Shown here: piece after piece, positions 589 through 62,515 of the stretch
Layout: every line of letters starts with the position of its first letter
Numbering within the stretch: the first letter of the stretch is position 1
Source: Rhizaria sp. SCN 62-66
Lineage: Eukaryota
Direction: 5' to 3'
Assembly: GCA_001724265.1 (NCBI GenBank)
Contig: MEDY01000026.1
Location: 1-64,000, forward strand
Length of the DNA: 64,000 nucleotides
Program-made: the position numbers and the translations under genes
Notes under the pieces: model-generated
The model's database searches: none
The model's input: the letters and a program-made list of their open reading frames with translations, nothing else
Told to the model about the DNA's origin: nothing

Positions 589-3500
589 TCACATTTCCCT
601 CCTTCGCTGCAACTCTTGCTTTCGTGCACGCCACATGCACATCCCCACTGCGGCTGCTAACATGGCCGCTAGTAAGCCTAGCGCCCAGATCAACGCACCG
701 AGATCCCGGTCACTCTCCTCCACAGCTGAAGAAGAGCTTTCGCGACTGCCAGAGTCGAGGATCAGAGTCGGCCACGATGATGAAAGCGACAGCAACGCCG
801 AGGCTGGCACATTGCCGGCGCTCTCAACTATAGCGGCAGCACCGTTGCGGTCAGCAGCAGTGGCTGGGAAGGGCGGGAGCGTGACGAGACCAACTAGATC
901 AGCAGGCAAATCACACCACGCATTAGAATCTGTGACTCCTGTCGGCATCACACCCGCAGCCGTCGCAGCGGCCTCCCGCGCCTCTGTCTCAACCGCAACA
1001 GCCGCCCTGCTGTCATATCCTGCGACTGAGTGCAGATTTGATGACATAGCAACCGCTGACGCCCGCAGCGCCAAACACTCCGCGCCCGACAGTCGCTGCA
1101 GTGCCCGGCGCGCGGCAGTGTCGTATTCGCCCAGCAGCACCGCCAGCGGCAGCCGCGCCGCCAGCGCTGCGGCCAGCGCAGGCACTGTGGGCGCGGCAGC
1201 GGAGACAGCGCTCATCGTCGTCGTAAAGGTCGAGGAGCAAGATTCGGCGCTCATTAGCGCACTCGCAGTATTAGCTGTATCCACGCTCACTGTTGCGGTT
1301 TCAAGACCAGCAGCACCAGTATTTTGAGGAGTAATAAGGTCGATCACGCGTCTTGGCGGGGCGTGCAGAGGGTAACTGACGATGAGCTCACCACTATACT
1401 CGCTATTGTCACTCACTTTGTCATTGTTCATACCAGTGTAAGTGTTAGCATCGGCGTTGACAGCGGGTGTCTTTGTGAAGACCATTCCATGTGCAGCAAG
1501 TGCAATATGCCACGCTCCTTCCCACGCAGCCTTTGCTTCCACAGAGCCCTTTACGTCACTGCGCGACAGCAAACTTACATCGATTTTTGATCCACCGAGG
1601 CGAGAGCGAGCGTTAACACTTGTGGAACTGTAATAGGGCTCAACGCGCGCAGATGCAGAGGCGCAAGCCCCAGTGCACACACCCAGCGCTGCTGCTAACG
1701 ACAATGCGTGCGAAGCTGTTGACTCCGACTTACGCTCGCGGTCACTCTCGTCACCGCGACCGTTGAAAGTGTGGCTTTGAATAGCTGTTGCAAGAAGACT
1801 GTTGTAGGCGTCGCCAGACAAAGCGCCCCCGCGCAGGACGTCAAGCGCAGCGCCCCACAGACCGCCATTAGGATGCTTGTTCGCGTGACCGTAAGCGGCA
1901 GCAATATGAGCATCCCTCGGATCAAGCCTAAATAATCGCACAAAAAAAGAAGAAACTTGCGTGAGTGAAGCCATTAAATCAACAGACGACATATTCCGTA
2001 TCAATTCAAATATCAGTTTCTTCGTACCTCGATAGGATTGCGCCGAGAGCAGCACCAGGCTCTCCCCAGAGCGTGACCGCGGCAGCCGCAGCGCCGGCGC
2101 CCGCAGCAGCCGGCCAAGCAGCAGAGGCTGCGGGCGCTGCTGCGGCTGCGGACGCTGCGGGCGCAACAACTGTGGCCGCAGCAAGGGGCAATATCGTCCA
2201 TTGTGGCAGAGTGACAACGTGGCGAGAGAGCGACATCACTGGCAGATTCCCGTTCTCATTGCAAAGACGCCCCGGTGTTTGCATCAGAACACTCGCTTGA
2301 CCCGCTCGAAGCAAGGTATCGCTATATTGCGCGTTCGTAGCGGTGCAACGAGCCGACCACGTTTTGACCGTGACGGCGACGGGGACCGTGGTGAGCAAAA
2401 CGACGGAGCCCTCGGCCGCAGAGCCCGCCAAGTCAGCGGTTGGGTGCTGTTGCGCCCACTGCAAAAAGCTCACGGGGCCGTGCGAGGCGAGATACCCACC
2501 AGCGCCCTGCAAAGAGGTGTTGCGGCTGTGTAGGTATCGTTCGGCAAGAGAACTAAGCAAGTCGGCACTGAGATCGTCGTTTTGCGTCGATGTAGTGTTT
2601 GCGGCACGAGTGGTGCTGGCTTTGATGTTAGTTTGTGCGGGCATGTTAGACAAGGCGTTGCTAAGACTGGCAGCAATCGTCGCGTAGTCATCGTTTCTAC
2701 TCTTCGAATCATCGCCTTTATCAGGGTGACTGTGATCAGCATTGCCGTCATTGCGGCGGCGCGCCCTCGTGTTGTGGCCGATGACTGTGAGCAGCCTGCA
2801 GTGCATCAGCACCTTGGCGCTGGCCTCGTCAAGCTCAGCGTCGGCCGCCGCATACTCACGGAGCAGACTACGCAAGTACTGCGGCGGCGCACCCTCGCGC
2901 AGCACAGCCTCGCGCTGCCGCTGCTGCTGGCGCTGGAACTGGCGCAGGCGCCGCGCAAACTGCAGTTGTTCGCGCTGCTCTCGCGCCGCCGTCGCAGCCT
3001 GACGCCGCCGCAACTGGGCGCGCGACGACGAGTCGCCGTCGACAGCTTGCTCTTCTTCATTCGCAGTGGTACTATCGTCAGCAAGATCAGTATCAGCGCC
3101 ATCATCGCTTCGTTCGTTGTCATCGTTGCTGTCGCCAACGCGGCTTCGAGCGTTCGCGGCCCATATCGGCAGTAGGATATCGTCGGTCATGCCAGGCACC
3201 ACGGTCAGCGTTGTCGGCGCGTGCACAACAAAACTCATCCACTCACCCTCAGTGTAATCATCATTTGCAGCACTATAATTGCCATTGACATCGTTGCTTG
3301 CGTTCCTGTTCTTGCTTTGCTTCTGCACGCGCATCGCCGTGGCCGCGTGCACGTTGCGCATCTCCCACCGCGCGCCGACCGCCGCCCTCTCGAGCGCGTC
3401 CCAGCACGCGCCCCACCGGCCCGCGCGCGCCGCGGCCAGCCCGCGCAGGCGCGCCGCCTTGTACCCGCGCGCGCGCGCGTCGCCGAGCCGCAGCGGCCAC

Positions 3501-6500
3501 AGCGCGTCCGCCTCCGTCGCCGCGGGCTGCGAGCCGGCCGCCGCGCCGCCCGCGGAGAGCGCGCCCGCGTGCGCGCCGCCGCCCAACGCCGACGCGAAGA
3601 GCGACGGCTGCGGCGACGGGGCCGCGGGTGACGTCGTCAGCGTTCGGCCGCGCACGCGCTCGACGATTTTCTCAGTATCGCTCACAGTCGCAGTCCCGCG
3701 CTGCTTCTTGCGGTTGACGTAGCGCGTGACCGTGCGCGTCCATGCGACCTGCGTGGGCGCGGGCAGCCGCGCCGCGTCGTCCGCCGTGCGCGCCCAGTCG
3801 AACGCGGCCGCCCACATGCCCTGCAGCGCCGCTGCGTCGGCAAGCGCGAGCGCGACCGTGACGGCGCCGCGGTTGTGGTCCCAGGCCAGCAGCAGCGCGT
3901 CGATGAGCGCGCGCGGCGGCGAGTCGAGCCGCAGCTCGCTCATGGCGCCCAGCAGCCCCGCGGCTGCGAGCTGCGGCGGCCACGACGAGCGCGCGCGCAG
4001 CAGCGCCCACGCGCGCGCCGACTGCGCAAACAGTCCATGCGACATAAGTGCGACGGCGTATTCGGAGATAAACGGGAGCGACGCCACGCCGGCGGCCAGG
4101 GCAGCGCCGTCGCCCCCGTGGTCGTGGTCATGCTCGCTGCTGCCGGCTGCGGCCGCCGCGGCGGCAACGGCGGCCGCGGCGGCCGCGGCTGCCTGGGCGG
4201 CGGCGTCGGTCGGCGAGACGCCTGCGAAGGCCCCGCGCCGGCGGCTGTGGGCCGTCAGCGGGGGCTCCGGGAGCTCGTCCAGATCTTCGCTGAAAGTAAG
4301 CCGCGTGACCGTGCGCAGCGAGTGGCGTGCGCGCACGGCGACCACGGTCAGCCACGGCCACTGCACGGTGTTTGCGAGCAAACCAACGCGATTCTCAGTC
4401 TCATCACCACGGTCATTAGCAACACTGCTTGAAGCTGCAGGGTGACACGCGGCAGCGTGGCGGCGGCAAAACGCGACCGCAGCGGCGACCGCGACAGCTG
4501 CAGCCTCCGCCGCGTCTGCGCCCGCAATAGCCAGCGTTCCCGGCGCACCTGCGTACGCCGCGGCGGGCGCGACGGTGACTGGCGAGTCCAACGGCGCGGT
4601 GCGTGTGATGGCGCGGCCGTCAGGCGGTAACAGAGAGAAAGACGGCAGTGGCAGACCGAGCGACACAGTCACTGAGCGCACCGGCAACGCAGTATGCGTA
4701 GTGGTGGCATTGCTGCTCTTGCTCTTGCTGTTCTTGTTGGCGTTTGAGTTCGGGGAGAGCGGCATGGAAGCGGGCACGTGCCAGCTCCACGCCGTGCGCG
4801 CGACCCGCCGGTGCGTCACAGTCGCGGCCTGCGGACACCGCAGCGTGAACAGCGGCGGGACGCCTCCGTCGTGTTCTGCGCGGTGACGCAGCGCAACTGC
4901 AACATCGTCGCTACCACTTTCATTGCCCTCAACCGCACTCGCGCGGTCAGTTGCGCGGCTTGACTTCGCCGCTGTGGAGCCGGCGTCAGCGGTCATGAGC
5001 ACGAGAGGGTCCACAGTGCACATCTCGAGCGCGACGGCACCGTGGCCGACGCCCCAGCCGCGCCGCAGCCGCCGCAGGTGCGCGCGCAGCACGCCGCCGT
5101 TCGCCACGGTCTCGGCAAAAGACGACGAGAGCGCGGACCGCAGCAGCGCGCTCGCTCGCACTAAGGGAGTATTTGCAGCAGCTGCAGTGCCATTGTTTGC
5201 CTTGTGTGCAGTAGTTGAAAGATGCGAATACAGTCGCTCCAGCGCGCGCAGCGACCCGTCTTTGCGGTCGAGATTGCGACTGCTACGAGAGTTATCGTTG
5301 CCATTGTTATGATTCACGGTCACCGTGGCCGTGAGTGGCGTGCGGTGGCCGGGGCTCGCCCCCAGCGCCGCCGCCGCCGAGGCGCCCGCGCCTGCGCCGC
5401 CGCCGCCGCTGCCGCCGGCGACCGTGGCCAGCGACGCGTCTGCGTACGGGTCGTACGCGGCGCTGCGCAGCCACGTGCCCGTGGCGTCCAGGGCAAGGGT
5501 GAACACAGGCGCGAGTAGGGCCTGGGACCGAAAAAAGGGCCGGGACAGCGCGGCGGCGAGCGGCAGCGGCGGGCGCGGGAGTAAGCGCGCGAGCGCGGGC
5601 AGAGAGCGCGCGGACAGGCCAGAGGCTGTGCAGTTTGACACACTGGTTTTGCTAGATTTAGCGGTGCTTGTTGGTGCCAGTGGCGGTGAGCAGGTGGAGG
5701 AGAGGTGCGAAAGCAGAGGCAGCGCAAATTCGTGGGGAATCTCCCAGAATGAGGGGAACTTTGAGGCAAAACGCGTGAAAAACGCCTCTGCACGCGCCTG
5801 CCATTGCGCACCGCGGGGGCTCACAGTCACGCGCTCACTCACAGTGTTGTGCTTTGCCGACTGCTGTTGCTGCTATTGTTGTTGCTCGGCATTCTGCTGC
5901 TTAGCATTGGGTTTCAGGCCAGAAGCACTTAGAGCGTCGCTGTGCGAGTGCAAGTGCAGCGCTGTGAGCGTGGTGCGAGTGACCGTGAGCACGCCACGGG
6001 CCGACACACCCCACTGCTGCTCCCAGCCAAGGCTCGCCACAGCCACAAAACCGGTGGGAACAGTGCTCGCGCCGTCAGACTTAGCGTTCGCGCGTGTGTT
6101 GTTGAGAACGTTTTGGCTTTGGAGCGAGAGTGTGTACGCCTCCCCAGAGTGGGTGTGCCACAGCCTGTTGTCAAGCAGTAGCGTTGTCGTCGCAGCTTCA
6201 GTCTCAGCCTCAGTGCCGCCACCAGCACGCTGCGCGCGCTTGCGCTGGGCAGTGCCGGTGGGCGGCGGCGCGGAGACTGGGGCGGGTGCGGTCAGCGAAT
6301 GGATGCGCATATAGCCTTGGAGGAACACTAAAAGTTCGGGACTCGGGCTAATATAGTAAAAGAAAGACAAATTTGTTGCGTTCAGAGTCGATGCTTAATT
6401 GTAGTTAAGAGAAATATAATATTGTAAATGCGAGGTGTTTAAGACGTACTCGTAAACATCGATGGCGAAGCAGTCCGCTGCTTTGGCTGCCGCGGCAAGC

Positions 6501-8122
6501 ACCGTGGCCGCCTCCGCCGCCGATGAGCCTTGAAACGCGCTGGCGTCGGGCGGCAACGAGCCTGTGAGCGCGCCGCCCTCGAAGGCAACGGCGGCGCAGA
6601 GCAAAGGCGCGTCGGGGGCGACCGTCACTGAGACGGAGTGACCGTGAGCAGACACCGTCGCGGCAGCGCCCCCACCGGCGCCAGCGGAAGAGTCGGCACT
6701 TGAATCAGGGTCAGAGAGAGGGGGTTGGCTCTCGTTGTTATGCCCGCGGCTGCGGTGACTATGCGCGCCATTCTCACCTTCACTGCCGCCGTGCCCGGGC
6801 TCTGAGTGACTGTGTGCAGAAGAGTGTTCGTGGTCGTCCTCATCGTGACCGGGAGCGTCATGATCGTGGCCATGGCCATGGCCATGGCCGTGATCGTGGC
6901 CGTGGCCGTGGGCAGCGCCGAGCTCTTGTCGCCACAGCCCGTCCCGACTCCACGCCACAGTGTCGATGACATTTTTAGGAACCATGACCTTCGCAGCCAT
7001 CCCTTGAGGATCACGCCTAACATCGTCTTTGTTCTTATTAGTGTTACTAGCCCCGAATAACCGCATTGCGCTGATCTTGCGCGCCTCTGCCGCGGCCAAG
7101 TTCGCACTGACAGCGGCATTAACCGCGCTCGCCGCGGCAGCAGGGCCGTAGCTGCTCACAGCTGCCTCAGCCGCGGCCGCCACCGCACCTGCCTCCGCCT
7201 CCGCCTCGACCGCAGCGGCTGTAGCGGCGACGGCGGGCATGTAGTAAACCGCGATCGCATCCGGTTGGCCGCAGCGGCGGCGGCGCAGCGGGCGCGCGCG
7301 CACGGGCGACTGCGCGCCCTTGGCCGCGGCCCAGGAGTCGAAGTTAGGCCGCGTCGACCAGGAGGTGGAGAGGTCGGCGAACGCGTTGAGAAGAGATGTA
7401 AACAAGGACGGATGATGACCGTTGTCAGTTGCTTCAGTGACAAAGTGGTACGTCTCCGCGTCAGTGTTCTCGTTGGGGAAAAGAGAGTCGTCGTCAGTAT
7501 CACCGTACAGTTCGATGTCATCTTCGCCATTTACAGCATCATTAGCATCGGTATTGTCGTTGTTTGGAGAGCGCAAACGGGGCCGCGGGTCACCGGCACA
7601 GGGCGCGTCGCAAGCCGAGGGCGCAATCGCGGTGGAAAACGCCGGGTCGGGCCCCGGGGCGGCGCCGCACACGCACGCGTTGCCGGCGTGAACACCGGCC
7701 CAGGGCAGCGCGAGCGCGGCACAGAAGCGGCCACAGCGCGCGAGCGTCAGCTGCGGCTGCGGGCCCGAGTGCGCGAGCGACAGCGGGAGCTGGTGGGGAA
7801 GCGCGGAAGGGTCGACGGAGAGACATGAACGAAAGAAGAGACGCGGGAGCGGTGTTGCCGTTGCTGTTGTCTTTGATGATGCAGCGAGGGTACTTGCTGA
7901 CTCCCACCAGGGCTTGGGAAGGGATACAGGAACGGGTGAGGCAAGTGACGCAAAGCTTAGAGTAAAACGCTCCGGGATAATTTCGCCAGAGTGTGCTTCA
8001 GCAAAATAAATCCATTGTGTAAGCAGGAGCACAGCGAATGCGAATGCTCCGAACAAGTTGCAATGGTTGGATGGTGCGGGCGCGGAAACGGGCTACTGTG
8101 AGGAGTGATTTGACACCGCCAT
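589..8122 (-). CDS. Large type I membrane protein (~2,443 aa): N-terminal hydrophobic segment, WSC carbohydrate-binding domain, His-rich tract, possible TPR-like helical region, C-terminal TM helix; 3 exons, two in-frame TAG
   Basis: Exons 8122-6450, 6347-2028 and 1927-589 with phase-consistent GT-AG introns (6449-6348, 2027-1928). ATG at 8122 is in frame with ORF 6395..8056 across TAG 8095-8093. ORF 5873..6370 continues in frame across TAG 5875-5873 into ORF 2006..5842. WSC-type Cys pattern: C..LTLARCGRFC..WAGVHAGNACVCG..CDAPCAGD..CG..AIAVY. TM segment LGALIWALGLLAAMLAAAVGMCMW followed by RARK. Ends TGA. Confidence 0.75.
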
Positions 8123-9478
8123 CGTGCTTAGCATAATGCGCATATGCGCGGCGTTAACTTCCGCCAAGGAGCGGGGTCAGTGTCAGCTCGGTACACGTTT
8201 TAGATACTGATGGGTATGTTGCGGTACTTCGGTGGTTCCAGTGATGACGGCAACAGGCCTGCGTGAATAAGAGTGTGATTAGTGATTGTAGATGTGAGTT
8301 ATAGAGTATATTATTTCAAAAATTATTCCTATTTAACAAATAAATTCCGTTGATACTAAGAGAAATTAAATTGACGATCAAATTCGCATCATACAATGGG
8401 TCAAAGTTCAAGCCTTGTCGTCGGTCATCAGACGCATTTGACTCTCACCAGTCACGTAAAGCATGTTGTTATCTTTTCAAGTTACTTTCATCAAGATATT
8501 ATGAGGGCAACAGATAAAGGAACTCAATTGTATTCTTAATACACACAATATACTAATATTTCGTGACGAAAGCAACATATTCACATTTCTTCTCGCATCC
8601 TTTCATTTCAGTTCTCGCTTGTTACACATGTTACGTTTTGTGTTTAAGATGAAGTTGTGATTGCCACTCAAAGCCAATACCTCTCACGCCTTGGCAATTT
8701 TTTCGCTGCATGAGAGTGATAATGCGTGGTTAAATAAGTGACATCTTTCTGAATGTCGTGTCGTTGTTTTTAAGAGTGCGTTTACAGTCATCACCCCAAG
8801 CATGAGTGTTTACAATGTGAGTGTGTGTCCGGCGTTTCGGGTGAAAACATGAGACGCGCCAAAAGACAGAAACACACGCAGCAGTGACACAGACACAGAG
8901 AGTGACACGTGGGCACGAATGTATCGTTGCCGATAGAGCAACAACGCTGAGCAATAGACGAAGAAAGAGGCAGCCACGCTACCACATCGGCGGTGTGCAC
9001 AATGAGTCGCTCGCTCGCTCAGCGCAAGGAGCATCGCCAGTAGCAACCGTCACAGTGTCAGAGTAAAAGTAAGTTAAGGGAAGGTGATGTTACTCTTACA
9101 TGCAAAGTCAAATAAAGCAACGCGCACGAAAAACGACAACAACAAAAAGGAAGCAGACAGACACAAAATAGACAGACACGACAATGAAAGGGTGTGAGAA
9201 GTACTGTCGACTCACAAGCTGAAAAATTGACAAGTTAATCACGACTCAACAACGCAGATACTTAATGCGTTCAAGAGACAACATAGGCCACATATGACAT
9301 ACACAAAAACAAGGAATACCAGTCAAACCAAAGTAAGCAAATTACAAAGACAAAACAAAAAGTAATGTTCTAGAGTTTCAGGTACACTACACAAAAGTTA
9401 CAAGAAATCTCTCACAAAATATCTCTCTTTAAGTACAGACATGACAGCATTCGAGTCGGCACTGACACTCGAACGCCC

Positions 9479-14482: not shown

Positions 14483-17400
14483 TTGCTGGCTGTGACCGAG
14501 ACCGAGACTGGTGGTGTTGTGGCTATGGCTGCGGCTGTGGAGCAGGTCCGGAGGGGCGTTGATGAAGGGGTCGTTGCTCGTGCCGATGTTTTTGTTGTTC
14601 ACAACCACAGTCGGGTAAGAAGACATCTCCGGGAACTGACCCTGCTGATACTGTAGCTGCTGTAGCTGCTGTTGTTGCTGGAGTTGTTGTTGATGCTGCT
14701 GTTGCTGCTGTTGAATCATGAGCAGCCGCTGCTGTTGCTGCTGCTGTTGTTGCTGCAGCAACACCATCTCGTGCTGCTGGCTCTGTTCATGCTGCCGCTG
14801 TATCAGCAGCAGCTGCTGCTGTTGCGCCTCGGCCACCGCGGCCTCGGGCGGGTACACTGTGGTGCGTTCCCAACCCGGCCCCGCCTTGGACACCGGCAGC
14901 GTGCGCGCCAAACTGCTGCCACCATCAACGCCAAGCTGGTGCTGCTGAGACTGAGGCTGAGGCTAAGGCTGAGCTTGCTGTTGCTGCTGAAGATGCGACT
15001 GCTGCATTTGATAGTTGTGCTGCATGTGCTGCTGTTGCGCGCACGCCATCGAGACGTCCTCAGACAGCGCTAGGTGCGGCGCAGACCGGCGCTCGATCAC
15101 CAGCTCCATGCGCATCGAGTTGCTGACCTCCTTGGGCGTCAGGTACACGGGCGTCGGCGCTGGCAGCGCAACGGGCGGAGTTAGGAACGCGCACGTGATC
15201 TCAACAAGCCCCGAGATGAGGCGTTGCATGCGCATCAGCATCGCCGGCGACGGCGCCGCGCCGGGCGGCAGCAGACTGGAGAAGAGGTCGTTCACGTCAA
15301 CGGCCGTCGGCGGAGCTGACTCGGCCGCCACAACGCCGTCGGGGCCCGCGAGGTCGAGCACGTTGTTGGCGTCCGCATCGTCCGCGGAGGCAGTGGCGGC
15401 GGCTGTGGCGTCCATGGCGATGTCGGAGGCCGTGCGGTGCATTGGACCGGAGGTACGCTCGGCGGCGTCCGCTGCTGACAGAGCGGCGGGAGCGCGGGAG
15501 TCGCCGTCGTCCATCGCGATCAGGGCAGTGCCGGCGCCGTTAGCGGCCGCGGAGAGCCCTGCTGAGGCGATAGCGGCGACGTCGGCGGCGCTGAGGCCGT
15601 TTTCATCGCGCGTGACCGCGTTTGAGGCAGAACCGCCGCCGTTGCGCACAGTCGCGTTAGTGATACTCTGATACCCGTGACTCGCGCTTGCGGTGCCGGC
15701 GCAGGTGAGAGGCACAAGGCGGTTGTCGCTGCTTGCGGTTCCGCGTCCCGCGGTATCTTTGCTGCCCAGGAGCGTGATCATCGCACGCTGCGCCGCGCCG
15801 CCGCCGTTGTTGACCGCAGAGCCCGCAGTCACGGCGCCGCTAGCCCCAGAGCCCGCGCCGGCACTGCGACTGCGGCTGTGGCCGGTTGGCGGGAGGCTGC
15901 CCGTGTCGATGACGATGCCGGGCACGGTCGCCGCCGCGGCCTTGGTGACCGCGGCGACGACCATGAGAGCATACGTGCGTGCGTAGGCCTCGGCCTCGGC
16001 CGCCGAGATGAGCGGCTCCGGCGGCTCTGCGGCGGCCGCGGCGGCGGCGTCCACTGCGGCGACCGCGGCCGCCGTCAGCGCCGCCGGAGAGCTCGGGTCA
16101 GCCGCTCCGGCCGCGGACGGCGACGGGGCCAGCGCGGAGGCCGCGATCGCCGCAGTGAACGCGCTGCTGCTGCTGCTGCTGTTTCTGCTGCTATTGCTGC
16201 CGCCTGAGGAGCCGGCGTCGGCGTCGTCAGGGGAGGCGTTGGCGGCGGCTGCTGCTGCTGCTGCTGCGGCGGCGGCGACAGTGCTCTTCTGGTAGCGCAC
16301 CGTCTCGTACAACACCTTGACCGCCTTGGTGCCGACCGCTGTGCCCACTGCGGTGCCAGCGGCGGCGCCAGCGGCGGCTGCGGCGACAGTGCAGGGGTTC
16401 AGCACCACGGCGCCGCCGCTGGACTGGGGCCGACTGCCGCTGGAGGGCTCCGCCTTGACGCGCGCACCGAAGCCAGCTGACGCTGAGCCTGACGCTGAGC
16501 CAGAGCCAGAGGCGGAGGCGGAGCTAGAGCCGTGTGCGGCGATGGGGGTGATGTCGGCGCTGGCGACCGTGGGCAGCGGGAGCTGCGTCAGCGCGTCACC
16601 GACACTGCTGTCGCCGCCGGAGCTCGGGCCAGAGCCCGTGCCAGAGCCAGAGCCAGTGCCAGCGCCAGAGTGACCATGAGCAAGACGACTGCGCTTTGCT
16701 TCGCGAGTCAGCACATCGGCCTCAGCGGCATCGGCCTCACCGTGACCCTCACGGTCACCGTTGCCGTTGCCGTTGGCACTGTGACCGAGAGACGAAGCGC
16801 TGGGACTCGCGGTGGAGACTGGTGACGTAATGAACGCAGCAACGGCGGCCGCGGCCGCTGACAGGGGGTTCTTGCTGTTGCCGCTGCCACTGCCACCGCC
16901 GCTGCTGTTGCTGTTGCTGGCAGCAGTCTTGCTAGCGGCGCTGACGCCAGTCGCGAGCGAGAGTGCGGCCACGCGCGGCGACGACACAGGTTCAGTTTTA
17001 ACGTGCACGCCACCAGCGCCCGCGCTGTCGTCGTCGCCCAGCGCAGTCGCATCGGCGTTCGTCTCCGCGTCGTCTGAGGCGTTGGCGCCAATGCTGGTGT
17101 TGCTCTGCGCAAGCTTCTCCTGCATTCGCAGTAAAACCTGCCTGATGACGGCAAGCGAGCGCGACTGCTCGGCCTGGTCGGAGCTCCGCAGCAGCGCCAG
17201 CAGCTCGCGCACTTGTGCGGCGGAAGGCATACCGGCGCGGGCGCATTCCTGCTCACATTTCTCGCGGTCACGCTCATCGACATTTTCACTTGCACTCGCG
17301 CTGGCGCTGGCGCTTGTGTTGTCGGCCTCAGTCTTGGAAGCAGTCTCAGTCGCACCCGCGCTCGCGCCACTGGAGCCGCTGCCACAGCTTTCATTGCCGC

Positions 17401-25600: not shown

Positions 25601-26152
25601 GGTGCCGCGGTTGGCGCTGGCGCTGGGGCTGGGGGTCTGAGCGGCCCTTACACGGCTGATGTAAGGGTGCTTGAGTTCTCAGACCACCCGTACCTGGCGA
25701 CCGTGGGCGCGGACGTCGTCGTCACCGACACAGTCGTGCCGCATTTCGCGGCCCACGCGCCCCCCGCCTCGCCCGCGGCCGCCGCCGCCGCCGCCGCTGT
25801 GGCCTCCGGCTCTTCCGCTGATTCACAATCAGCAACGCACGCCGTCCCGGTCGGCGCCGCGCTGCCCGCGGCGGCGGCGCGGTACGAGCTCGACGTTGAG
25901 ATGCTCGCGACAGCCGCGCCACACGCGCGCCTCGCCCACTGCACGGGCTCGCCGCTGCGCGCGTGGCTCGCCCCCGCCGCGGCCGTGGCGATGAGCGCGG
26001 ACGACGCACGCTGCGTGTGGGCCGCGCAGGCCGCGGGGGAGGCGGCCGCGCTTGTGGCGCTGTGCGCCGCGGCTACGGGGCGCGAGCGAGAGGTCTACGC
26101 CGCAGCGCAACAGCAGCAACAGCAGCAACAGCAGCAACAGTTGCAGCGATGA
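22670..26152 (+). CDS. Ornithine/aspartate carbamoyltransferase-fold protein, catalytically degenerate, probable mitochondrial presequence (1,160 aa)
   Basis: Single ORF. OTC-like blocks in the expected order: RLNSISDL, LLLLPPRSSLPLARASL..ALERAG, ETVALLQTL, FPLASPFSSPVAVLGLLS, LLLDLIRAARMLGCNLSYALP, FSDHPYLATVGADVVVTDT, YELDVEMLATAAPHARLAHC, VWAAQA. Arg/Ser-rich, acid-poor N-terminus MLRLPHAVRRMSS. Ends TGA. Confidence 0.75.
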   Translation: MLRLPHAVRRMSSIHLATPARLLTNSSTTSKAPTSSPVAATGATPASVAPSFTFPCRLNSISDLGVLGLRHMLSLTATASALPLLPTAADAAAASALARSLSLPLHLAPATRAAAPLRPLAPLSGVTALLLLPPRSSLPLARASLPVKALERAGAAVALCSVPALAAAAGAREAETVALLQTLRNTVTYNTSSTSTAAAAASATATAAAAAAIPASFITRVGDGDAAAAVELSERVFPLSPAAATAPGSAFGPPLPPQPHPQSTTQSQSHSASSAAAESSSSPDSSDEYVCVPRPQFPAQWLRHSDANTALADAGLSTQGSDLRTPEDWLAAFAAASAAASPRVTQLALAAYYVCAWLPQSPANSGNTSSSSRSQLDALESAVATVTAANNELSVSDALAAASAALLAGLPSAAAGATNDPIAGTAANAVAATLGPSAASAVRLRTLMLPGKATLTPPKFLASGDGAALSAGAIRELTVGSTGSEAGALALLQLRRPAVTVTVEGPVSAAAVASGAPAPAAGSAAAHALAAGVVGGCEWVTAVAAVTDALAGVAAPPPATLESAAGAQAQGASKGGNLLSNISGITYTPAPSDVANSGDDAKNARASDAAADLSSASNTKTLSPHDVYVLTQAIVRALPSFRSAALAPALLRARAAVTAAQAEAMSQPKASRAKKTVVAAALKTKKLGPGSLADLAVGHAGASAGADVMRLKRPLWQWYVAANGAPVSPPGLFTHVNSSESDCGGQSAVYAHPSTATSPLLSAVTHYSSESAANGTSAGAATVGDTSDNTVGVAAFPLASPFSSPVAVLGLLSACERVSESQEQQQHQKQQQQQQQAQQGKKASAPEPSQPRSMMLSLASKIGVVAARPSALLLDLIRAARMLGCNLSYALPRRGGAWGARIDAAVASTPALADYKHADKQTTTAAASSQSQSPLLRQPTVIQSPEDMQRAADALQKTRENDERAAAAAAAAANARAGAAVGAGAGAGGLSGPYTADVRVLEFSDHPYLATVGADVVVTDTVVPHFAAHAPPASPAAAAAAAAVASGSSADSQSATHAVPVGAALPAAAARYELDVEMLATAAPHARLAHCTGSPLRAWLAPAAAVAMSADDARCVWAAQAAGEAAALVALCAAATGREREVYAAAQQQQQQQQQQQLQR

Positions 26153-26446: not shown

Positions 26447-29400
26447 TCACTTGTCGAAGACCGAGGACGCGTTGTCCCTGCGCGCACCGGGAGCGGCGCC
26501 GAGCTTAAGGATAGCCTCACGCGCAGGCCCAGATGCTCCAGCTGTAAGCCCAGCGCGGCCAAGCGCCTCAGCGAGTCGGAAACGTGGGTCCTTTCGCAAG
26601 CCTTCGACGGTGAGACCTTCAGCGCGCGCAGCAGTACTCCTGTTCAAAGCACGGATGAAGCAAGTGTAAACCGGTTGTAAGCAAGAAAAAAAGTGGGGGT
26701 TGGAAAATAAGAAGCACCATAAAACGAATTACATCCCAAGCAGCTAGTTTTGACAATTGATGAACAAATAATGCAGATGATTCTAACGATGGTGTCGAGT
26801 GTGACGTACCGTGCAACAGGGTCTGCGAGCGTCGCCATGCCCATGCGCCGCAGATGATCCTCTTGCTCTTCCCTCTCCGCAGCCTCCATCACCGCGCGCT
26901 CCGCCGCAAGCTCCGCCGCAGCCGTCGGTCGCAGCGCGCGCGCGGGATCCCTGGGCACGCGCGCGTCGACCGCGTCCGCCACGCTGCGTCGGAGCGCCTC
27001 CAGCTGCTCCCAGCGCGCCTCCGCCTCGGCCGCGGCCGCTGCAGCCGCCGCGGCGCGCACGGCGGCCTTTTCGCGATCCAGCTCGGCGCGCGCCTGAGTC
27101 CGCGCGCGGCTCTCAACTAGCGCCGTGGCCGCCGCGCGCGCCGCCTCGGCTGCCGCCGCGGCTGCCGCGGCGTCGGCGCGGGCCCGTGCGTCCGCGAGCG
27201 CGGCGCGGTGCGTCTCCAGCTGCGCTGACAGGGCGCGGCGGCGGCGCGTCTCCTCGGCCGCTGCGGCCGCAGAGGCGAGCTCGTCCTGCGCGGCGGCGTC
27301 CGCGGCCGCCGTGGCGGCGGCGACGTCGGCCGCAAGCGCTCGCGCCTGCGCGGAAGCGACGTCGAGGTGGCGCAGCGCCGCGGCCGCCGCGGCCGACGCG
27401 CGCCGCAGTTGCGAAGATGACGACTGCGCCTGGGCACGCGCAGCGGCGGAGGCTGCGGCCGAGAGGGTCTGCGCCAACGTGGCCTCGGCCGAGGTGATGG
27501 CAGACCTCAGAGCCGCGTCGCGACGCCTGAGACACGAGACAAGAAATTAAATCAACAAGAGAAAGTGATACATGTCAGATCCACGTCAAAAGTCATAGAT
27601 ATTCAAACAAAAAAGAAAGAAAGAAATAAAGCATCAGATAATTATAAAAACTTATTTTGTCAATATTTGTTCAAGACACGTACCTAAATGCGTTACGCAG
27701 CGCGATCGAGTCTGCGACTGCGCGGACTGCGGTGGGCGACAGATGCGGCAGCTCCAGTGCGAGCAGCGGAAGCAGCGAGCGCGGCGGCGGCGGCAGCGCC
27801 CAAACGGCCAGCAAAGACGCACCGATGGGCGCCGCAGTGGTCGTAGTCGGAGCATGGGCAACCGTGAGAGCCGTGCTGTTTGCGATTGCATTTGCGTCTG
27901 CGGCATCAGTGTTGGTGACAGTGAGCGCGCGCGAGGACGAAGGACGAGACTCACCCGCACCAGCGCTCGTGACGCTGTTGCGGCGAATCGTTGCAGCGCC
28001 TGCAGTTGCAGAAGCACCAGCGGATGGCTTGGCGACAGCGGGGGGACGCGGGGCATGCGCCACTGCAGTACTGCCAGCGGAGCTATTGCTGCTGGCATCG
28101 GCGTTGCTTTGACGCTGTGCAGTTTGGTACAGGTTCCGCACCAACGTCCACTGCGCCGAAGTCAAGCCGCTACCGCTTGCGTTTGCGCTCGCGTCGGTGT
28201 TCGCGTTCATCTTAGAGCCGCCCGCGGAGATGGTGGCCTCCAGTGCTGCCGCAGCGGCCGCATACAGCGACCGCAGCCGCGCCAGTGTGTGGGCGCATGC
28301 GGCGTCGTACTCCGCGCATGCAGCCGCAGCCGCGACGAGCGCACTCACGCTCGCGGCGCCACTTGCACTCGCACTACCGACGCCGCCCGCGCTTGCAGTG
28401 CTGCTGCTGTGGATAGAACTGGCGTGCGCACTCACTGCGCTGTTGCCGCCGAGGATAGGGCCGAGAGAGGGCGGCGCTGGCAGGGACGGCAGAGCGGGGG
28501 GCACGTCGCCAAGACCAAGCAGCGCGTGCACACGCGCACGCAGCAGTGCGGCAGCGCTCGCGTTGCGCCCATCGGCGGAGACTAGAGCTGTGGAGCTAGG
28601 CGCTGAAGCTGGGCGGTCATCGTCGGTCGCAATCTCGACCAACGCGTACTTCCCTCCGTCGCTGCAATCGCCTTCAGCGTCTGTCCCAGTGTCACCATCC
28701 GCCTCAGAGGCGTTGTCGTCGTGCTTGGACTTCGCATGCGCTGCGAGGTCACCAACACTGGGCACCGCTGTGAGAAACAGAGCGCCGCCGTCATTCTCCG
28801 CAGCAGCAGCACCAACGTCACTCTCGTGCTCATCTTGAGCATCGTGACGATCCTTCTGAGGCGTTGCTGCCACTGCAGCAGCGCCGGACACAATAGGCTT
28901 GATTCCGGACTTTGCGCCTTTCACCGTCGAAGCGGAAGGCACGCTGCTCACGGTCACCACGGGTCCAGCCTTGGACATCGCTTCGCCCAGCCCCAGCCCA
29001 CGCGCCAGCGCAGCCTCCAACCGCGCGATTGCGTTGCCCTGCGCGGCGACGACGACGCTTCCCGCGCCCGCGCCCGCGCCGTCGCCGGCCGCGTCAGTCC
29101 CGTCGCTGTTAAGGCTCGCCAAGGAGAGCGCATCGTCAGACTTTTTCGGAACAGTGCCCGCGGCCTCGGCGGCGCGCCACTGCTCGTCGAGTGCGGCGCG
29201 GTGCTTTTGCCGTGGCGCGTCGGCCGTTTTGCCGGCCGGCACGTACAGGGACGCAGGCGCGCGCGGCGGCGGCGGGGCGCGTGTCGATGCAGAAGACGCA
29301 GCGTCGCTAGAAGCAGGAAGAGACTCATACTCACTGCTTTCCGCCGCGTCTTTGTCGCTATTGGCAGCACTGCGTGTGTTGTTCGAGAATTTGACCGGAG

Positions 29401-37585: not shown

Positions 37586-37629
<44 letters not shown>

Positions 37630-46564: not shown

Positions 46565-46619
<55 letters not shown>

Positions 46620-47074
46620 CGATCACAAACAACAACACCACGAGCAGCAGCACAAGTGGCAGCGGTGACAGCAAGACGACACCTGTAGCTGCTGAGCAAA
46701 AGACATCGCAAACAACTCCTGCTGCGACTCCAACTGCTGCAGCAACTGCAGCCGCTACTCCTCCTGCTGTTGTTGCGTCTGCAACCGGCCTTGACGCTGC
46801 TGCAACTGCTGCGATCGCCGCAGCGGCCGCGGCCGACACGGCCGCCGTGAGCGACTCCGTGCTGTCCCCTGCAACGGCGTCGTCCGTGGCCGCAGCCGTC
46901 GCGGCCGCTTCCCCGCCTATCAATGATGATGGCTGGCCGGTGGATGTCGCCACCGGCGCGCCGCTGGAGCCGGAGCCGTGGCAGTGCTGCGGCAATGACT
47001 GCATCAACTGCGTGTGGATCCAGTACGAAGAGCAGGTTAACAAGTATAAGGATGCACTCGCAAAGCGCAGGTGA
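46166..47074 (+). CDS. OXLD1: Oxidoreductase-like domain protein (OXLD1/UPF0651 family), probable mitochondrial (~302 aa)
   Basis: C-terminal PLEPEPWQCCGNDCINCVWIQYEEQV matches the P-x-CC-x-x-x-C-x-x-CVW motif. First in-frame ATG at 46166. A (GCA)15 polyAla tract lies at about 46571-46615. Ends TGA. Confidence 0.82.
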
Positions 47075-47871
47075 GAGTCAGGTGATTTATGGGCGTTCGA
47101 CTTACTCGCCGATAACTTATGACGACCTGCTGTGGGACGCGATATCGGTTGACATTGATTCACTTTAAATGCTTGAGAACTGAAAAGTTAACTAAGCGAG
47201 CTATCTAGTTTATTTATTCGCGTTATCTAGAAGTTAATAGACCAATCATTACTGTATAGTTTTTACCCTATGCTACTGTATAATATCCCACGTTGAGTGT
47301 GACAACACTTATTGGTGTTGAGAATCCTGTTCAAAGATGTACACAAAACCAAATCATATCGCTATTTTGAATGATATCACGTAAGTTTCGACGCGAATTT
47401 GCGACGTGTGCGTGTCTGCGTTGGATGCGCGCGTGTGGTGCGTGCTTTGCCGACACTATTAACTTGTGGTCGCTTTTGAGTTGCACACATAGAAGCTCAG
47501 AATAGGTACAGATCCCCCAAAAATAGCACACACTAACTAAAATGTGCTTGCAACACTACAATGTATGCTGGATTTTCCGGATAAACTTGCAAACACTTGG
47601 TATTCATTGCAAAATCGATTCTCACCACAAACGTCTTTTGCTGGTTGCCATCAACCAGACGAAGATACGCCGAATTTTTAGCAAGATTTTCCACAAGAGA
47701 ACCGCAGTGAAACAAAGTGTACATAGTATTAACATATATAAACACATGCGAAACATTTTTCTTCACTATAGCTGCCTAGATACTCACACGGAATGATGAG
47801 TCCTCTTGTTTTGTAACATCCGATCGCAAACAGGTTCTTCGATTGAGCACAACCCATTCAAATCGCCCACA

Positions 47872-50800
47872 ATGGATGTTTCTGCGACCGCAAAGGCTCT
47901 CCAGGCCGATGTGTTGCGTCTTATAACCCCACATGTTAACCCCGAGACACGCGCATTCATCGCCACCTTGCGCCGCGCTGTGCGCACAGTCGAGCTCGTG
48001 CCGGCAGATATCATCGCCACCGCACCTAGCGTTTTTTCGCTTCCGCGTGCGCCGTCTCTTAAGGATCTCTCGTCATCCAACTCCACGCTGCGCAGGGCTA
48101 ACCTGGCGCGTTTGGCGGCGTACGCGAGCATTTCCGTGCACTTGCACGAGTACATTGACGACGTCTGCTGCCGTCACTACTGGCCCACAGGCGACGGCTT
48201 TTGGGCCGAGAGTGACAACGACGGCGGCGGTGAGATTGTTGCCGAATTCGCGTTGCCTTCGGACAACCACGAAGAAAATAACGACAAAAACATTGACGAG
48301 GGCGATGGCCAGGAGGATGAGGACGGCAACGACGAGAACAATGCGAACGGTGATGTTGACGGCGACAACGCCACAGAGAAGAGCTCAGCAGAGGCCAATC
48401 CTGAAGGTGAGAAGGCAAAGGAGGCCACCGCGTCTGATGCTGATGAGGGTTCCGATCCCGATGTTAGCACTGAAGCTACGCCTGCTGCAAACGTTGCGTC
48501 GGATGATGGTGACGGCGACACCAAGAGTGGTAACGACTCTGCGGACGCTGTTGCTGAGGATCTCACTGCTGACCTTGCGTCAACGCTTGAACACCGCGCC
48601 AACACAGCCTTGAAGGGCGGCAATGTCCGCCGTTTCTCGTAGCTGATGTTTCGCCACTGCTTCACCGCATGCTTTGAGCCCTATTTCCCCAGCAGCGGCA
48701 GCGAACACAGTACTGCTGCTTTGTGCACATGCGGTCTCAACTTCTGCGACTCATCCTCATCCTCGTCCTCATCCTTGGACTTGGAGTCGGAGTCAGAACC
48801 ATCGGAGCCGCGCCAGACTCTGTCTTCGGTGCTGCTGCCGCTGCTGTACAGCCCGTCGCGCACCGACGCCGCGCTAGCCGCGATCGCGCTACACGGCATC
48901 CTGCGCGCCGCGCCCACGCTCGACGCGCGCGCGGGGCTAGCCAACGGCATCGCACAGGAGCTGCTCAACGTGCTAATTGCGGTTCCCGTGGCGGCGAACC
49001 CGATCCTGGTTGACCACGCCGCGCGCGCGCTGCGGTACAGTCTCGAGAGCAGCACGTTAGCACATCTCACCGTCTTCGCGTGGCAGAGTCCTGTGCAGCT
49101 CATGTTCGACATGATGCTGGAGGAGAACTGCACCCAGGGCGGAGTTGAGACAACGTACGTGGCGCCAGAGGGCGGGTACTACAAGGGCGCAGAGGACACT
49201 GGCGACGGCGCACGGTGGCGGTCACCGCATGACGAGAAAATCCCGCTGTTTCCGAGCTCGTTTGACAATTGCTACGAGATCGAGCTTCTCGGCTGCATTA
49301 AGACGGCGCTTACGGCGATTCCGTGTTTTAGCAGCACTGGCGGCTGCGACAATGCGTCCGGCTCGTTTGCATCTTCTTCCGACACGTTTGCGTTCGACCT
49401 GTTCAGCAAGGCTGTCGGGTCCCTGCTCAGCGTGGTGACGGAGTCGATTGAGTGCATGAGCTCGCAGATTGACATCATGCCGCTTTTGCTCGAGCAGGGC
49501 GCTATTAGTACTCATTACGCGATGACGCGCTGTGCTGCACTGTTTCTCGAGATCGCACCGCTAATTCCGTCTCTTTTTCACGCCCTCGTTGGCACGGATG
49601 TGTACGCATATGCATCTACAACGGACGATAAGAACACCAATGCAAGTGAAAGTCGCACTGGCAAGAGTGCTGGCGCTGTGACTCTGAGCAAAGAAAAGGC
49701 AATCGAGCGTCTGCGTTGCGTGACGAAGCTTATTCGCCAACCGATCCGAGTCCTGAACAATTATTCGTCCAACCTTGGCATGAGCATGCCCTACGAGAGG
49801 CCGTACCACATCGACAGTCTTGCTTACGGCCAGCGCGACAACCGCGCCCCGTGGGCTGTGTTTCCGGACATGGAGCCCGCGTGGCGTGCGCGCCTTCAGG
49901 CCGCCGTGGCCGCGGTCAAGCGCGGGCTGCCGCGCGCGATTGCGGCGCAGCTGACCGCGGTGCAGCGCGAGGCGACGCAGACTCTTGCGGACCACGAGGC
50001 CGCCGTCGCAGCGTATAACAAGCGCAAGGCGAAGCAGGCGGTTGCTGCGCAAGACGGCGACGATAGCGACGACACTGATCACGAGACCGCGGAAGATGGT
50101 GCTGGGACTGATGATGATGACGACAGTTTAAGCGGATATGGGCTGTTTGACGATGATGAGTCGCTGCATGACGACAGCAGCGAGAATGGCGACAGCAGTG
50201 GCTTCTCAGCTGAGAAAGTGATAGATGACTACACTGCGCGCATGGCACACGAGGCTACGCAAGAAGCTGACGCGCCCCCCGCGAGCCCGCTTCTCCACCT
50301 CATTTTCGAGTCGTCGGGCGCTCTCCTTGCCTCGTTCCTGCCGCTGGCAGAGCTGTTGCCGCGCTCGGAGTATGGCTTCTTTGTGCGCGACTATGTTATT
50401 GGCAGCGAGATTTACACCGCCTTAGAGGTCTCTGCCCCCGGTGATCCGAACTGCTTTTTCATGCGCCGCGCAGCTGTGACACGCGGCATGCTGTCGCTGG
50501 TGTCACGCCTCGCGTCTCCGCGCATGCTGTCCATGGGCACCACGGTCATGGCCAAGGCGTTGCTGTTCGTGGACGCTGTTGCGAGCAGCGGTGCTCTGTA
50601 TCCGGCAGTGCGTGGCCCGCTGAAGGGCGACGACGCCCGTGCGCTGCGTGTGTGGACCAAAGATGGCGGGCCCATGTCCAAGGGGCAGGTGCAGGCTGTC
50701 CGGTTCTTTTCTCCTCCCACAAACGATCGGGAGGCGCGCGAAGGAACACAAGGGACCGAAGCGATGCTTGTCTCACTGCTTTCGTATGAGAAACTGCCCG

Positions 50801-51306
50801 CCAACGCTAAGCGGAAAAATGTTAGCAACAATAGTGGCTTGACTGGTGATGCTGTCGCAAACGCAATGATGCCTCCACCGCATCCAACAGAGCTGCTGCG
50901 TTGCAATGTGATTCGTATCGTGGGGCGCTCGATATCACACGACTTCTCGCCGAGCGCAGTGCCTGGCCTCGAGGCTCTTCCGCGCTTTGTGCGATGCGGG
51001 CTTCTCAACGTGCTCGCGAACACGTTGCCGACTATGCCACTGCGGTTGCGGCTTGCAGTGGCCGCGCTGGTGCCTGTGATTGCCGCCGAGTTCCTCGCGT
51101 GGGATATGAACATTGAGTCATTCACACCGTATCAGCGGCGGTGGATGCAGCAGTATGTTGGCGAACCGCTGATCTCGATGTACAGCGACGAGGCCTTTAA
51201 AACCCTTGTTGAGGTGCAGTGGAAAGTTTCGGTGATGGCAGCCTCGGGCATCGATGTCGATATGTTCGTAAAACCCTTGGTTGAGATCGCCGATATGGTG
51301 AACTAA
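47872..51306 (+). CDS. Hypothetical protein (~1,144 aa), helical/ARM-like with acidic inserts; one in-frame TAG
   Basis: ORF 47806..48642 (first ATG 47872) and ORF 48646..51306 are in the same frame, separated only by TAG 48640-48642 and CTG. Amphipathic helical segments; no family recognised. Ends TAA. Confidence 0.65.
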
Positions 51307-51643
51307 ATTCGTATTTGTTGTGGTATAATAATTGTTTCTGTGGACGTATGAGTCAGTACCGTTTGTTTCTTCAGGTTTATAGTGTTTTTTTTTTCATCCC
51401 GTCGTTCATGCCTAAGCAACACGTTTTACTTGCTCTTTGAGCAACTGTACAGTACAACGAAATGTGAAACGAATACATGTTGTGTATATTTCGAATTAAA
51501 CAATAATTGCGATAGAAGTTGAGGTCAAGAGTACCGCCGATACAATCCATTAGACTCACAGAAACTTAAGAAGACTTTACTGATAACTTTCGAAAAAGAC
51601 TGACAATACTGAACTGCTCTTCCATCATCTATCAGTCCTTCGC

Positions 51644-59677: not shown

Positions 59678-59922
59678 CACAGCCTATTCGGTTGAAATAA
59701 CAATTTGTAAATAATAGGTTGTTAGCAATGCTTAAATATATGAGCAGTCAAGTTGCAGTCCTGAACAACGATCGTGTGTCGAGGTAGTCTTGGTTCAAGA
59801 TGTTGAATTCGTGGATTTTTGTTTGTGGCCGAGGAGCCACCCCGCCCCGGCGCGAAGTCTATCACTCGTCACTATGAGATGTATACATTGTTTGAGTTAG
59901 TATAATTTCGCGCACAGGCAAA

Positions 59923-60625
59923 ATGTCATCTCTTCTCGATGATACTAAACCCTCACACGTGGTTGACGGATCCTCCTCGGCGTCCGCTTCCTCGACGGAT
60001 CCAACTTCTTCTCATCCTCTCGCTGGTACGTCAATCCATCCTTTCCTGCTCAAGCGCGTGAAAATCTTAACTCTTACGTACACCACTCACCCATAGCGTT
60101 ATCTATTGTGCATCTTACAGGTAAAAATGCGCCGTTTACGTTCTCCTACGATATTAGCGGCGTGCCGGCGACTTTCGCGGTGACGCATCACGCGAATCAA
60201 GTCAACGTGATCGTGTCGCAGACGGGCGCTGTCGGCACAGTCATTCACGCAGAGGCTGATTCCTCCATCGCAGGCGTCGCCACCGAGGACACCACGTTTA
60301 CCGTCAAGGTCCTGCTTGGGTACGCCTCAGTCATCCAACCGCATATCTTTGTCAATTATTCTTCAACGGCTAGCTCTATTGCTTCCTTTGCTTACTTCCG
60401 CATTCGAGCTTGTTTCTTCCCCCATTGCCTCACAGTTCGCGCGACTCGTCCACCGACGGCGCCGTTGCGCTGGCGCGCCGCGTCATCGCCAGCATGACTT
60501 CGGCCTCGGCCGCGGCCACCCGCCCCCCCAAGGCCTTGCAGCTGCTGCTTGGTTTCCCCGCGCCTCTTTCGCTCGAGACTGCCAAGGAGGTCTACAAGGT
60601 GCTCGACGACGCCGGCACTTGGTGA
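59923..60625 (+). CDS. PSMG3: Proteasome assembly chaperone 3 (PAC3), ~163 aa, 3 exons
   Basis: Exons 59923-60025, 60121-60319 and 60436-60625, phase-consistent. NQVNVIVSQTGAVGTVI..FTVKVLLGSRD..LARRVI..LQLLLG..terminal W match the PAC3 pattern. Ends TGA. Confidence 0.82.
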
Positions 60626-61150: not shown

Positions 61151-62515
61151 TTAGCAGTACTGCTGGATGGCGTTAAGGAGCGTGTGGCACTCCTTCTTAT
61201 AGTCGACGGGCGTGACACGGAACACCTGCGCACGCACCGCCACGTTGTCATCCTGCCCGCGGTCCGGCTTGGCGCGCAGGCGGAACTCCCACAGAGTGTT
61301 CTGCCGGTCCGCGAAGACACGGGCCAACGCCGCCGGGTCGGTCCCCATCGCGGCCTCCAGGTCGCGCGCCGTGACGCCCAGCACAGACGCGGCCTCCTCG
61401 TTGAACGCCGAGACGAACCGGCTCGCAGAGCTGTCTGCGATGGCGAACGACAGCATGTAGCGCGGCTCGTAGTGGTCGTACGAGCGCTGGCACTTCTCGC
61501 ACCAGTACTGGCCGGTGCTCTGGTCAGCGGTAACCTTCTTGTTGCAGCCCTGACCGGGGCACGCGGTGTACCACGGAACCTTCTCCGCGTTGGGTTTGAG
61601 GTAGGTGATCCACGCCCGCACCGACACGTACTGCCCCGCGCCACCCATGCCCTCGGCGATGATGTTGTCGTCGTTAATGTCGGCCAGCAAACCCAGCGCG
61701 TCGCGGGCGCCCGTGCCGCCGGCGCCGCTCGCGCCGCCACGAACCGAGAGTGTCTCAACCGTCGACTGCGCGCCCGTGGAGGAGTACCATTGCGCCAGCG
61801 CGGCGGCCTCGGAGGAGCCGGTCGGGTTGATGGCGAGCTTGGAGTCGAACGTGGTCGACAGCGAGCGGCCCGAGAACTCAGAGACGCGGCATGCGCGGAC
61901 GGCGACGACCGGGTTGCCCTGTAGGTAGTTGTCGTTGTGCGGCTCGGCCTGGTCGCCCCACAGCGTGAGCGAGATCGAGGTGAGCGTGTCGTCCATGATG
62001 GTGATGTCGCGCTTCACGAGGTCACGGCCGGCCTTGGACCGCAGGCTCTGGACCGGGTTCACGGCCGTCACAACGCCCAGCACGTCGCACTTGGCCTCGG
62101 CGGGAAGGGACGCAATCTGGCCAATCTTGGTGAACGAGCCGTAGTGCTCAGACTTGATATTGGCGTCGTCGGGGCAGTTCTGGATCACGGAACGCTCGTC
62201 GAAGGTGAGCTCGTCTTCGTTGGTCATCTTGTTGCTGCCCTTGCGGCCGCCGGAGAAGGTGTAGACGGAGCCCGGGATGATATACTCAAAGAACTGATCG
62301 ACGCCCTTGTTGAAAAAGGTCGCCTTGATGGAGCGGCCCGAGGCGTCGAGCAGCTCGCACGCGAAGAGCTTGCCCTCACCGCGCTGGTTCGTGTACGTGC
62401 GGATATCCGTCTTGGACGTGACACGGACCTTGATCGTCCAGCGCGGAGCGTAAGGACTAATCTCGGAGATCAGCTGGATGTGGTCTTGTGCCGAAGGACC
62501 GCCGTGGCCGTACAT
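61151..62515 (-). CDS. RPA1: Replication protein A large subunit, short form (OB folds A, B, C with zinc finger), ~454 aa
   Basis: ISEISPYAPRWTIKVRVTSKTDIRTYTNQRGEGKLF (DBD-A); DVLGVV..KRDITIMDDT..SLTLWG..VSEFSGRSLS (DBD-B); WYTACPGQGCNKKV..WCEKC..RYML (DBD-C with C4 zinc site). Ends TAA. Confidence 0.92.
   Translation of the reverse strand: MYGHGGPSAQDHIQLISEISPYAPRWTIKVRVTSKTDIRTYTNQRGEGKLFACELLDASGRSIKATFFNKGVDQFFEYIIPGSVYTFSGGRKGSNKMTNEDELTFDERSVIQNCPDDANIKSEHYGSFTKIGQIASLPAEAKCDVLGVVTAVNPVQSLRSKAGRDLVKRDITIMDDTLTSISLTLWGDQAEPHNDNYLQGNPVVAVRACRVSEFSGRSLSTTFDSKLAINPTGSSEAAALAQWYSSTGAQSTVETLSVRGGASGAGGTGARDALGLLADINDDNIIAEGMGGAGQYVSVRAWITYLKPNAEKVPWYTACPGQGCNKKVTADQSTGQYWCEKCQRSYDHYEPRYMLSFAIADSSASRFVSAFNEEAASVLGVTARDLEAAMGTDPAALARVFADRQNTLWEFRLRAKPDRGQDDNVAVRAQVFRVTPVDYKKECHTLLNAIQQYC

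Follow-up and report, generated by a model that had tools for sequence, protein, structure and literature searches.

We report that, in a 64,000-nt stretch of DNA, the codon TAG is found inside protein-coding genes and at the end of none of them. This stretch, hereafter the window, is positions 1 to 64,000 of contig MEDY01000026.1 (assembly GCA_001724265.1, deposited as Rhizaria sp. SCN 62-66); it is eukaryotic nuclear DNA with a GC content of 55–70%, and it carries 11 complete genes and one cut gene (WD40) on both strands (Table 1). We assign a probability of about 0.77 to the reading that UAG is decoded as glutamine (Gln), with UAA and UGA as the only stop codons, a code listed by NCBI as table 15. 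Four features of that code are found in the window: UAG stands in frame, it aligns with Gln, it ends no gene, and UAA and UGA terminate genes and are absent in frame.

TAG codons within open reading frames

Across 17,897 codons (10 genes, introns removed), TAG occurs in frame five times, while TAA and TGA do not occur at all; the PAC3 gene and the cut WD40 gene contribute no further in-frame stops. At least one TAG is carried by each of four complete genes (A, B, E and H), and translating through these codons merges adjacent open reading frames (ORFs) into single giant frames. Beyond the five TAGs, 1735, 1455, 1288, 887 and 565 codons follow without a stop, with a GC content of 0.50–0.69. The true stops show the opposite: downstream of all 11 of them, the next in-frame TAA or TGA is found at 0–45 codons, and the following 150 nt have a GC content of 0.33–0.48.

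TAG 8095 sits between the only upstream ATGs, which provide the only usable start of gene A, and a signal-peptide-like stretch; the next in-frame ATG beyond it comes only after the WSC domain. An intronic position for TAG 48640 was considered and rejected, as there is no AT-rich stretch near it and the sole plus-strand donor-like site upstream (48120) implies a frame-breaking, GC-rich intron of 523 nt. Two other TAGs, one an intron acceptor (10477) and one in a 5′ leader (59686), were not counted as in-frame.

The amino acid at TAG can be read by homology in gene H. A protein search with gene H gave two matches: P0001, the window's own called protein, and P0002, an uninterrupted 1127-aa orthologue from another assembly, with 65% identity and 100% of the query covered. 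The two proteins are conserved on both sides of the TAG, and TAG 48640 faces a Gln of P0002 in the invariant block S-Q-L-M-F-R-H-C-F-T, so that Gln is the residue at one of one alignable TAG sites. A protein search around TAG 14965 yielded no matches among 2400 low-complexity candidates. For exon 1 of gene A, a comparison with representative proteins returned 35 matches, comprising its own shortened protein and distant WSC-domain proteins, which left TAG 8095 without an alignment. Public protein calls are cut at TAG: P0001 (886 aa) starts past TAG 48640, and P0042 (545 aa) starts past TAG 8095.

The surroundings of the TAG codons also point to Gln. Three of them (37618, 14965 and 5875) take the place of CAG within runs of Gln codons or within a (CAG CCT) repeat. 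The mean number of Gln codons within ±5 codons of the five TAGs is 4.6, compared to 0.45 for all codons (P = 2e-5, resampling), and the same count around Gln codons is 2.71. Because the values of 4.6 and 2.71 are compatible (P = 0.10), we consider that the neighbourhoods of TAG match those of Gln codons.

Two of the TAGs persist across independent sequencing efforts. The comparison used Logan contigs from other runs and covers TAG 5875 and TAG 8095; among the contigs listed, none covers TAG 14965. A contig from run X3 (another study, 2017) spans positions 5730–7976 with zero differences. Contigs from run X4 (2025), in which the strain differs slightly, span positions 5620–6874 and 7795–9466, with single-nucleotide polymorphisms (SNPs) nearby and neither TAG altered. 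Because they are unchanged in the contigs of other runs, TAG 5875 and TAG 8095 are not assembly slips or private mutations. Compared with run X4, there are 21 coding differences, eight of which are synonymous.

Table 1. Gene ends, in-frame TAG codons and introns in the 64-kb window
Feature	Coordinates	Strand	Description
Gene A, stop TGA	589..591	-	3 exons, 8122->589; WSC-domain protein
Gene B, stop TAA	9479..9481	-	giant gene, at least 3 exons, about 21983->9479
Gene C, stop TGA	26150..26152	+	gene 22595-26152
Gene D, stop TGA	26447..26449	-	3 exons, 31519->26447
Gene E, stop TAA	32408..32410	-	giant gene, 43168->32408
PDI gene, stop TAA	43823..43825	-	3 exons; stop follows ...RDEL
Gene G, stop TGA	47072..47074	+	Oxidored-like domain
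Gene H, stop TAA	51304..51306	+	gene 47872-51306; C-terminus as in orthologue P0002
Ski2-like helicase, stop TAA	51644..51646	-	gene 59677->51644
PAC3 gene, stop TGA	60623..60625	+	3 exons
RPA1, stop TAA	61151..61153	-	gene 62512->61151
TAG 37618, gene E	37616..37618	-	(CAG)4 TAG (CAG)6; open 1810 codons upstream, 1735 downstream
TAG 14965, gene B	14963..14965	-	CAG CCT TAG CCT CAG CCT CAG; replaces CAG of CAG-CCT repeat (Q-P-[TAG]-P-Q-P-Q)
TAG 5875, gene A exon 2	5873..5875	-	CAA CAA CAA TAG CAG CAA CAG CAG
TAG 48640, gene H codon 257	48640..48642	+	TCG TAG CTG ATG; ordinary coding context
TAG 8095, gene A codon 10	8093..8095	-	probably in frame; CAG TAG CCC; nine codons past ATG
Intron	6348-6449
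Intron	1928-2027
Intron	20174-20363
Intron	10475-10603
Intron	27527-27683
Intron	26640-26809
Intron	45060-45221
Intron	44471-44681

Codons used to end genes

The 11 gene ends comprise 6 TAA, 5 TGA and 0 TAG. A preliminary description of the window had listed these termini and reported that none is TAG; all 11 were recovered at the same positions and on the same strands, with gene models that pass the intron and C-terminus checks. It had also pointed to conserved C-termini in four genes, and these were borne out for PDI, Ski2 and RPA1 by the RDEL motif, by alignment and by length, respectively, while PAC3 ends in ...AGTW. The Ski2 end, SASLYI(T), aligns with the final residues of MTR4/SKI2 chains of solved structure; the C-terminal length of RPA1 equals that of a 64%-identical relative; and gene H and its orthologue have their final residue at the same place. 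TAA thus ends six of the 11 genes, four of them at homology-backed C-termini (Ski2, RPA1, gene H and PDI), and it is never found in frame. The earlier conclusion that UAA is still a stop, which excludes a code in which both UAA and UAG (UAR) specify Gln, therefore stands.

Four further stops (TAA 6395, TAA 10595, TGA 27671 and TGA 2006), omitted from the census, do not end genes. All four are intronic, and therefore the 11-gene model is right. We also scanned the window without gene models for ORFs that end in TAG, have a length of 100 codons or more and show a drop in GC content. The scan gave five candidates, all of which are antisense or off-frame within known genes and run into an intron or an untranslated region, and it found no bona fide TAG-ended ORF in the window. 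The earlier claim that TAG is not used as a terminator agrees with the absence of TAG from the 11 ends and with the five in-frame TAGs, of which one faces a conserved Gln in an orthologue. The case for recoding rests on these in-frame TAGs, which were absent from the preliminary description, rather than on the census. At two gene ends, additional stop triplets are present: two stops in tandem, TAA TGA (32405–32410), close gene E, and TGA TAG lies three codons beyond the TAA of Ski2.

Rarity and sequence context of TAG

TAG accounts for 0.6% of Gln codons in the window (5 TAG, compared to 619 CAG and 180 CAA), and its occurrences share one feature of sequence context. All five in-frame TAGs have C as their next base, and all 11 true stops have some other base there (Fisher p = 2.3e-4). 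For C to appear in all five cases, the probability is 8e-4 when measured against all codons and 0.03 when measured against the codons that follow Gln. A stop codon followed by C is in the weakest termination context in eukaryotes. Because C follows all five TAGs, there may be competition between decoding and termination, or these codons may be sites of readthrough. The pattern may also represent a context rule that separates sense from stop reading; the counts for such a context-dependent code are small, namely no TAG terminator in 11 genes alongside 5/5 and 0/11 for C at the +4 position.

Known cases suggest how UAG could be decoded. A tRNA-Gln with anticodon CUA, one base from the normal CUG, would read UAG and would not read UAA, and eRF1 would have lost or weakened its grip on UAG. 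Within the 64-kb window, there are no tRNA genes and no eRF1 gene. Because TAG makes up such a small share of Gln codons and always stands before C, the reassignment may be young, or decoding may still be competing with termination. The most likely placement of the window is as a new, probably independent case of UAG=Gln only, possibly one that is early or context-dependent.

Weighing the alternatives

Several observations weigh against the decoding of UAG as Gln. Only one of the five TAGs has been compared with an orthologue, using two sequences in all, and CAG>TAG nonsense transitions would give the same look to the three TAGs in Gln runs. TAG is also about 25 times rarer than the leucine codon pair predicts (TAG/CAG of 5/619, compared to TTG/CTG of 129/567), and the presence of C at the +4 position of all TAGs also fits leaky readthrough. 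Downstream of TAG 5875, a signal of purifying selection is absent (two of six SNPs are synonymous, a small count), and no RNA contig among those listed spans any TAG. The sample is small, with 11 ends and five TAGs, and the census alone (0/11) is weak and not significant. The preliminary description had made the same reservation about its sample, and it holds: under standard-code usage, the chance of 0/11 TAG ends ranges from 0.02 to 0.63. It is 0.63 at a TAG share of 4.1%, the value reported for standard-code Euthynema (PMC9161772), and 0.30, 0.14 and 0.02 at shares of 10.5%, 16.2% and 30.3%, corresponding to the 10.5–16.2% or 30.3% of genes that are reported to end in UAG in standard-code phyllopharyngean ciliates (PMC11687900).

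The alternative that survives best, although we consider it unlikely, is that the code is standard, that TAG is an unpopular stop, and that leaky or programmed readthrough takes place at the in-frame TAGs. In the weak UAG-C context, the normal tRNA-Gln(CUG) would insert Gln in a fraction of cases, and there would be no dedicated tRNA. The strict difference in the +4 base between in-frame TAGs and true stops is what this explanation would lead one to expect, as is the great rarity of TAG as a sense codon, and the existence of a standard-code protist with 4.1% UAG stops makes 0/11 possible by chance (PMC9161772). However, four large or conserved genes would then give mostly shortened products, and in genes B and H there are conserved parts downstream of the TAG. 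The C at the +4 position is itself explained in three of the five cases by the location of the TAG in a Gln or Pro-Gln run. Readthrough of the tobacco mosaic virus (TMV) type has the motif UAG-CAR-YYA. The full motif is absent here: CAR follows two of the five TAGs, and YYA follows none.

A second alternative, which we regard as improbable, keeps the standard code and treats the in-frame TAGs as nonsense mutations, split genes or assembly errors, with 0/11 TAG ends arising by chance. The commonest stop-creating transition in these genes is CAG>TAG (619 CAG, compared to 180 CAA, 33 CGA and 118 TGG), and the Gln context and the restriction to TAG would then be no great surprise; we estimate the chance that all five would be TAG at about 0.15. 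Gene H has an ATG two codons past its TAG, and the SNP pattern is without clear constraint. Nevertheless, premature stops in four of 11 genes would amount to mass pseudogenization, yet 565 to 1735 codons remain open beyond each TAG. Conservation between gene H and its orthologue, which is itself one protein, extends over both halves, and independent assemblies dated 2017 and 2025 show TAG 5875 and TAG 8095 unchanged.

The least probable alternative, that TAG is a sense codon for leucine, serine or glutamate, has precedents on record in UAG=Leu (the rhizarian exLh and TARA ciliate metagenome-assembled genomes), UAG=Ser (Scotinosphaera) and UAG=Glu (as listed in PMC11687900) and gains from the homology test having one site and one sequence, but the orthologue has Gln at that site, within a fully conserved block, three TAGs break pure Gln runs or a Gln-Pro repeat just where CAG is expected, and the TAG neighbourhoods resemble those of Gln codons.

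Comparison with known codes

The UAG=Gln-only code is itself already known; it is the host and the degree that differ here. Nuclear reassignments of UAG alone are few among those described in the cited sources: Iotanema, one rhizarian, Scotinosphaera and several ciliate lineages (PMC5304391, PMC9161772, PMC11687900). In the collection of articles that we searched, there is no report of a UAG=Gln-only code in a wastewater protist.

The fornicate Iotanema spirale reads UAG as Gln, with 204 in-frame UAGs reported in 126 genes and, among its 119 reported stops, 104 UAA, 15 UGA and no UAG (PMC5304391). The same source describes a tRNA-Gln(CUA) that reads UAG but not UAA, and a second one describes a change from GTS to GGS in the Iotanema eRF1 (PMC9161772). 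The window resembles Iotanema in that intact genes contain in-frame UAG, also opposite a conserved Gln, that no gene ends in UAG and that UAA remains a stop. In contrast to that anaerobic gut flagellate, the window has five TAGs in 17,897 codons, a TAA:TGA ratio of 6:5 and exons with 55–70% GC; it comes from wastewater or bioreactors, and its RPA1 has 33–36% identity to any named protein.

Among ciliates, the phyllopharyngeans Hartmannula sinica and Trochilia petrani, as well as Protocruzia tuzeti, use UAG for Gln only (NCBI table 15), and in those ciliates 78–91% of genes are reported to carry UAG at a GC content of 27–54% (PMC11687900). The window shares with them the reassignment and the use of UAA and UGA as stops. 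It differs from them in being GC-rich and multi-gene (its own proteins are recorded on a 127,990-nt contig), in having GTACG intron donors and in its far lower usage of TAG. These ciliates have gene-sized chromosomes. By this comparison, the locus does not look ciliate-like.

In Condylostoma and Blastocrithidia, stops are context-dependent or ambiguous, and the same codon both codes and terminates. The likeness is that sense use in the window may also depend on context, given that every sense TAG, and no true stop, stands before C; the difference is that there is no TAG terminator here (0/11) and that one codon is affected. Phages recoded to TAG=Gln (code 15; PMC9523058) are described with the same codon and the same meaning, but these are phage genomes in bacterial hosts, while the window is eukaryotic nuclear DNA with spliceosomal introns.

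Gene content and introns

Pfam matches identify a Ski2-like helicase, RPA1, a PDIA6-like PDI, PAC3, and WSC-domain, Oxidored-like and WD40 proteins. The encoded proteins abound in runs of Ala, Ser and Gln. The giant genes E (about 3550 codons) and B (more than 4060 codons) are largely coiled-coil or Ala/Gln/Ser low-complexity sequence, and gene E contains in addition Cys-Pro-rich repeats (CPEPV...) and a membrane-like C-terminal segment. Downstream of gene A, a perfect (TGT)29 microsatellite occupies positions 1–88, where the window begins on its left side.

The eight introns are 100–211 nt long and AT-rich, with a GC content of 0.27–0.40 compared to 0.6–0.7 in exons, and at all eight of them the flanking exon frames rejoin without a stop. 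Donors read AG|GTACG(T/C) or GTTCG, where the bar marks the exon–intron boundary, and acceptors read YAG|G. The intron signals are unusually uniform and include CTAAC-like branch sites close to the 3′ end. A contig from a poly(A) RNA library (6314–6613) runs unspliced over the inferred intron at 6348–6449, which may reflect DNA carry-over or pre-mRNA; there is no spliced contig among those listed.

Host and relatives

The source organism is uncultured. Runs labelled as bioreactor, wastewater or activated-sludge metagenomes (2015–2025, at least three studies) hold 0.81–0.98 of the sampled words of positions 43000–52000. RPA1 has one 64%-identical relative, and its next-best matches, at 33–36% identity, are spread over animals, fungi and one diatom. 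We built an RPA1 tree from 28 of 39 matches, leaving out 11 redundant animal, tick and metagenome rows. In this tree, the window's protein and its relative P0004 share a long stem that lies outside animals and fungi, and their placement beside the diatom is weak (82/50). As judged from this protein, the lineage remains without a supported neighbour and hence unplaced; it lacks close relatives among sequenced organisms.

The Rep-A_N domain (PF04057), present at the N-terminus of nearly all other matches, is missing from the RPA1 of the window and from its 64%-identical relative, and the window's protein has 453 aa compared to about 600 aa in the other matches. Searches for related DNA gave nothing usable in metagenome contigs (queried with the gene B C-terminus and the gene H alignment) or in viral contigs. 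Among genome contigs, the window's RPA1 found nothing, and the relative's RPA1 found only a spurious match of 42 residues to an alphaproteobacterial metagenome-assembled genome (L001).

A more specific scenario is tentative, and we hold it to be well short of probable. The window may come from a deep, unplaced wastewater lineage, neither ciliate nor fornicate, that is at an early stage of reassigning UAG to Gln, independently of other lineages and in a genome rich in GC. TAG would be gone as a terminator and would persist as a rare sense codon, arising mainly by C>T changes in CAG repeats and tolerated only before C.

Implications

The rarity of TAG and its strict association with C at the +4 position could show an early stage of reassignment. 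If this is true, such an early-stage lineage would be a living 'ambiguous intermediate', which codon capture under AT pressure does not predict. A further UAG-only case, apparently independent and in a GC-rich organism, would count against the view that UAA and UAG have to change together, and it would show that reassignment does not depend on a low GC content. Because public protein calls are cut at TAG, the proteins of this lineage are shortened or split in metagenome catalogues.

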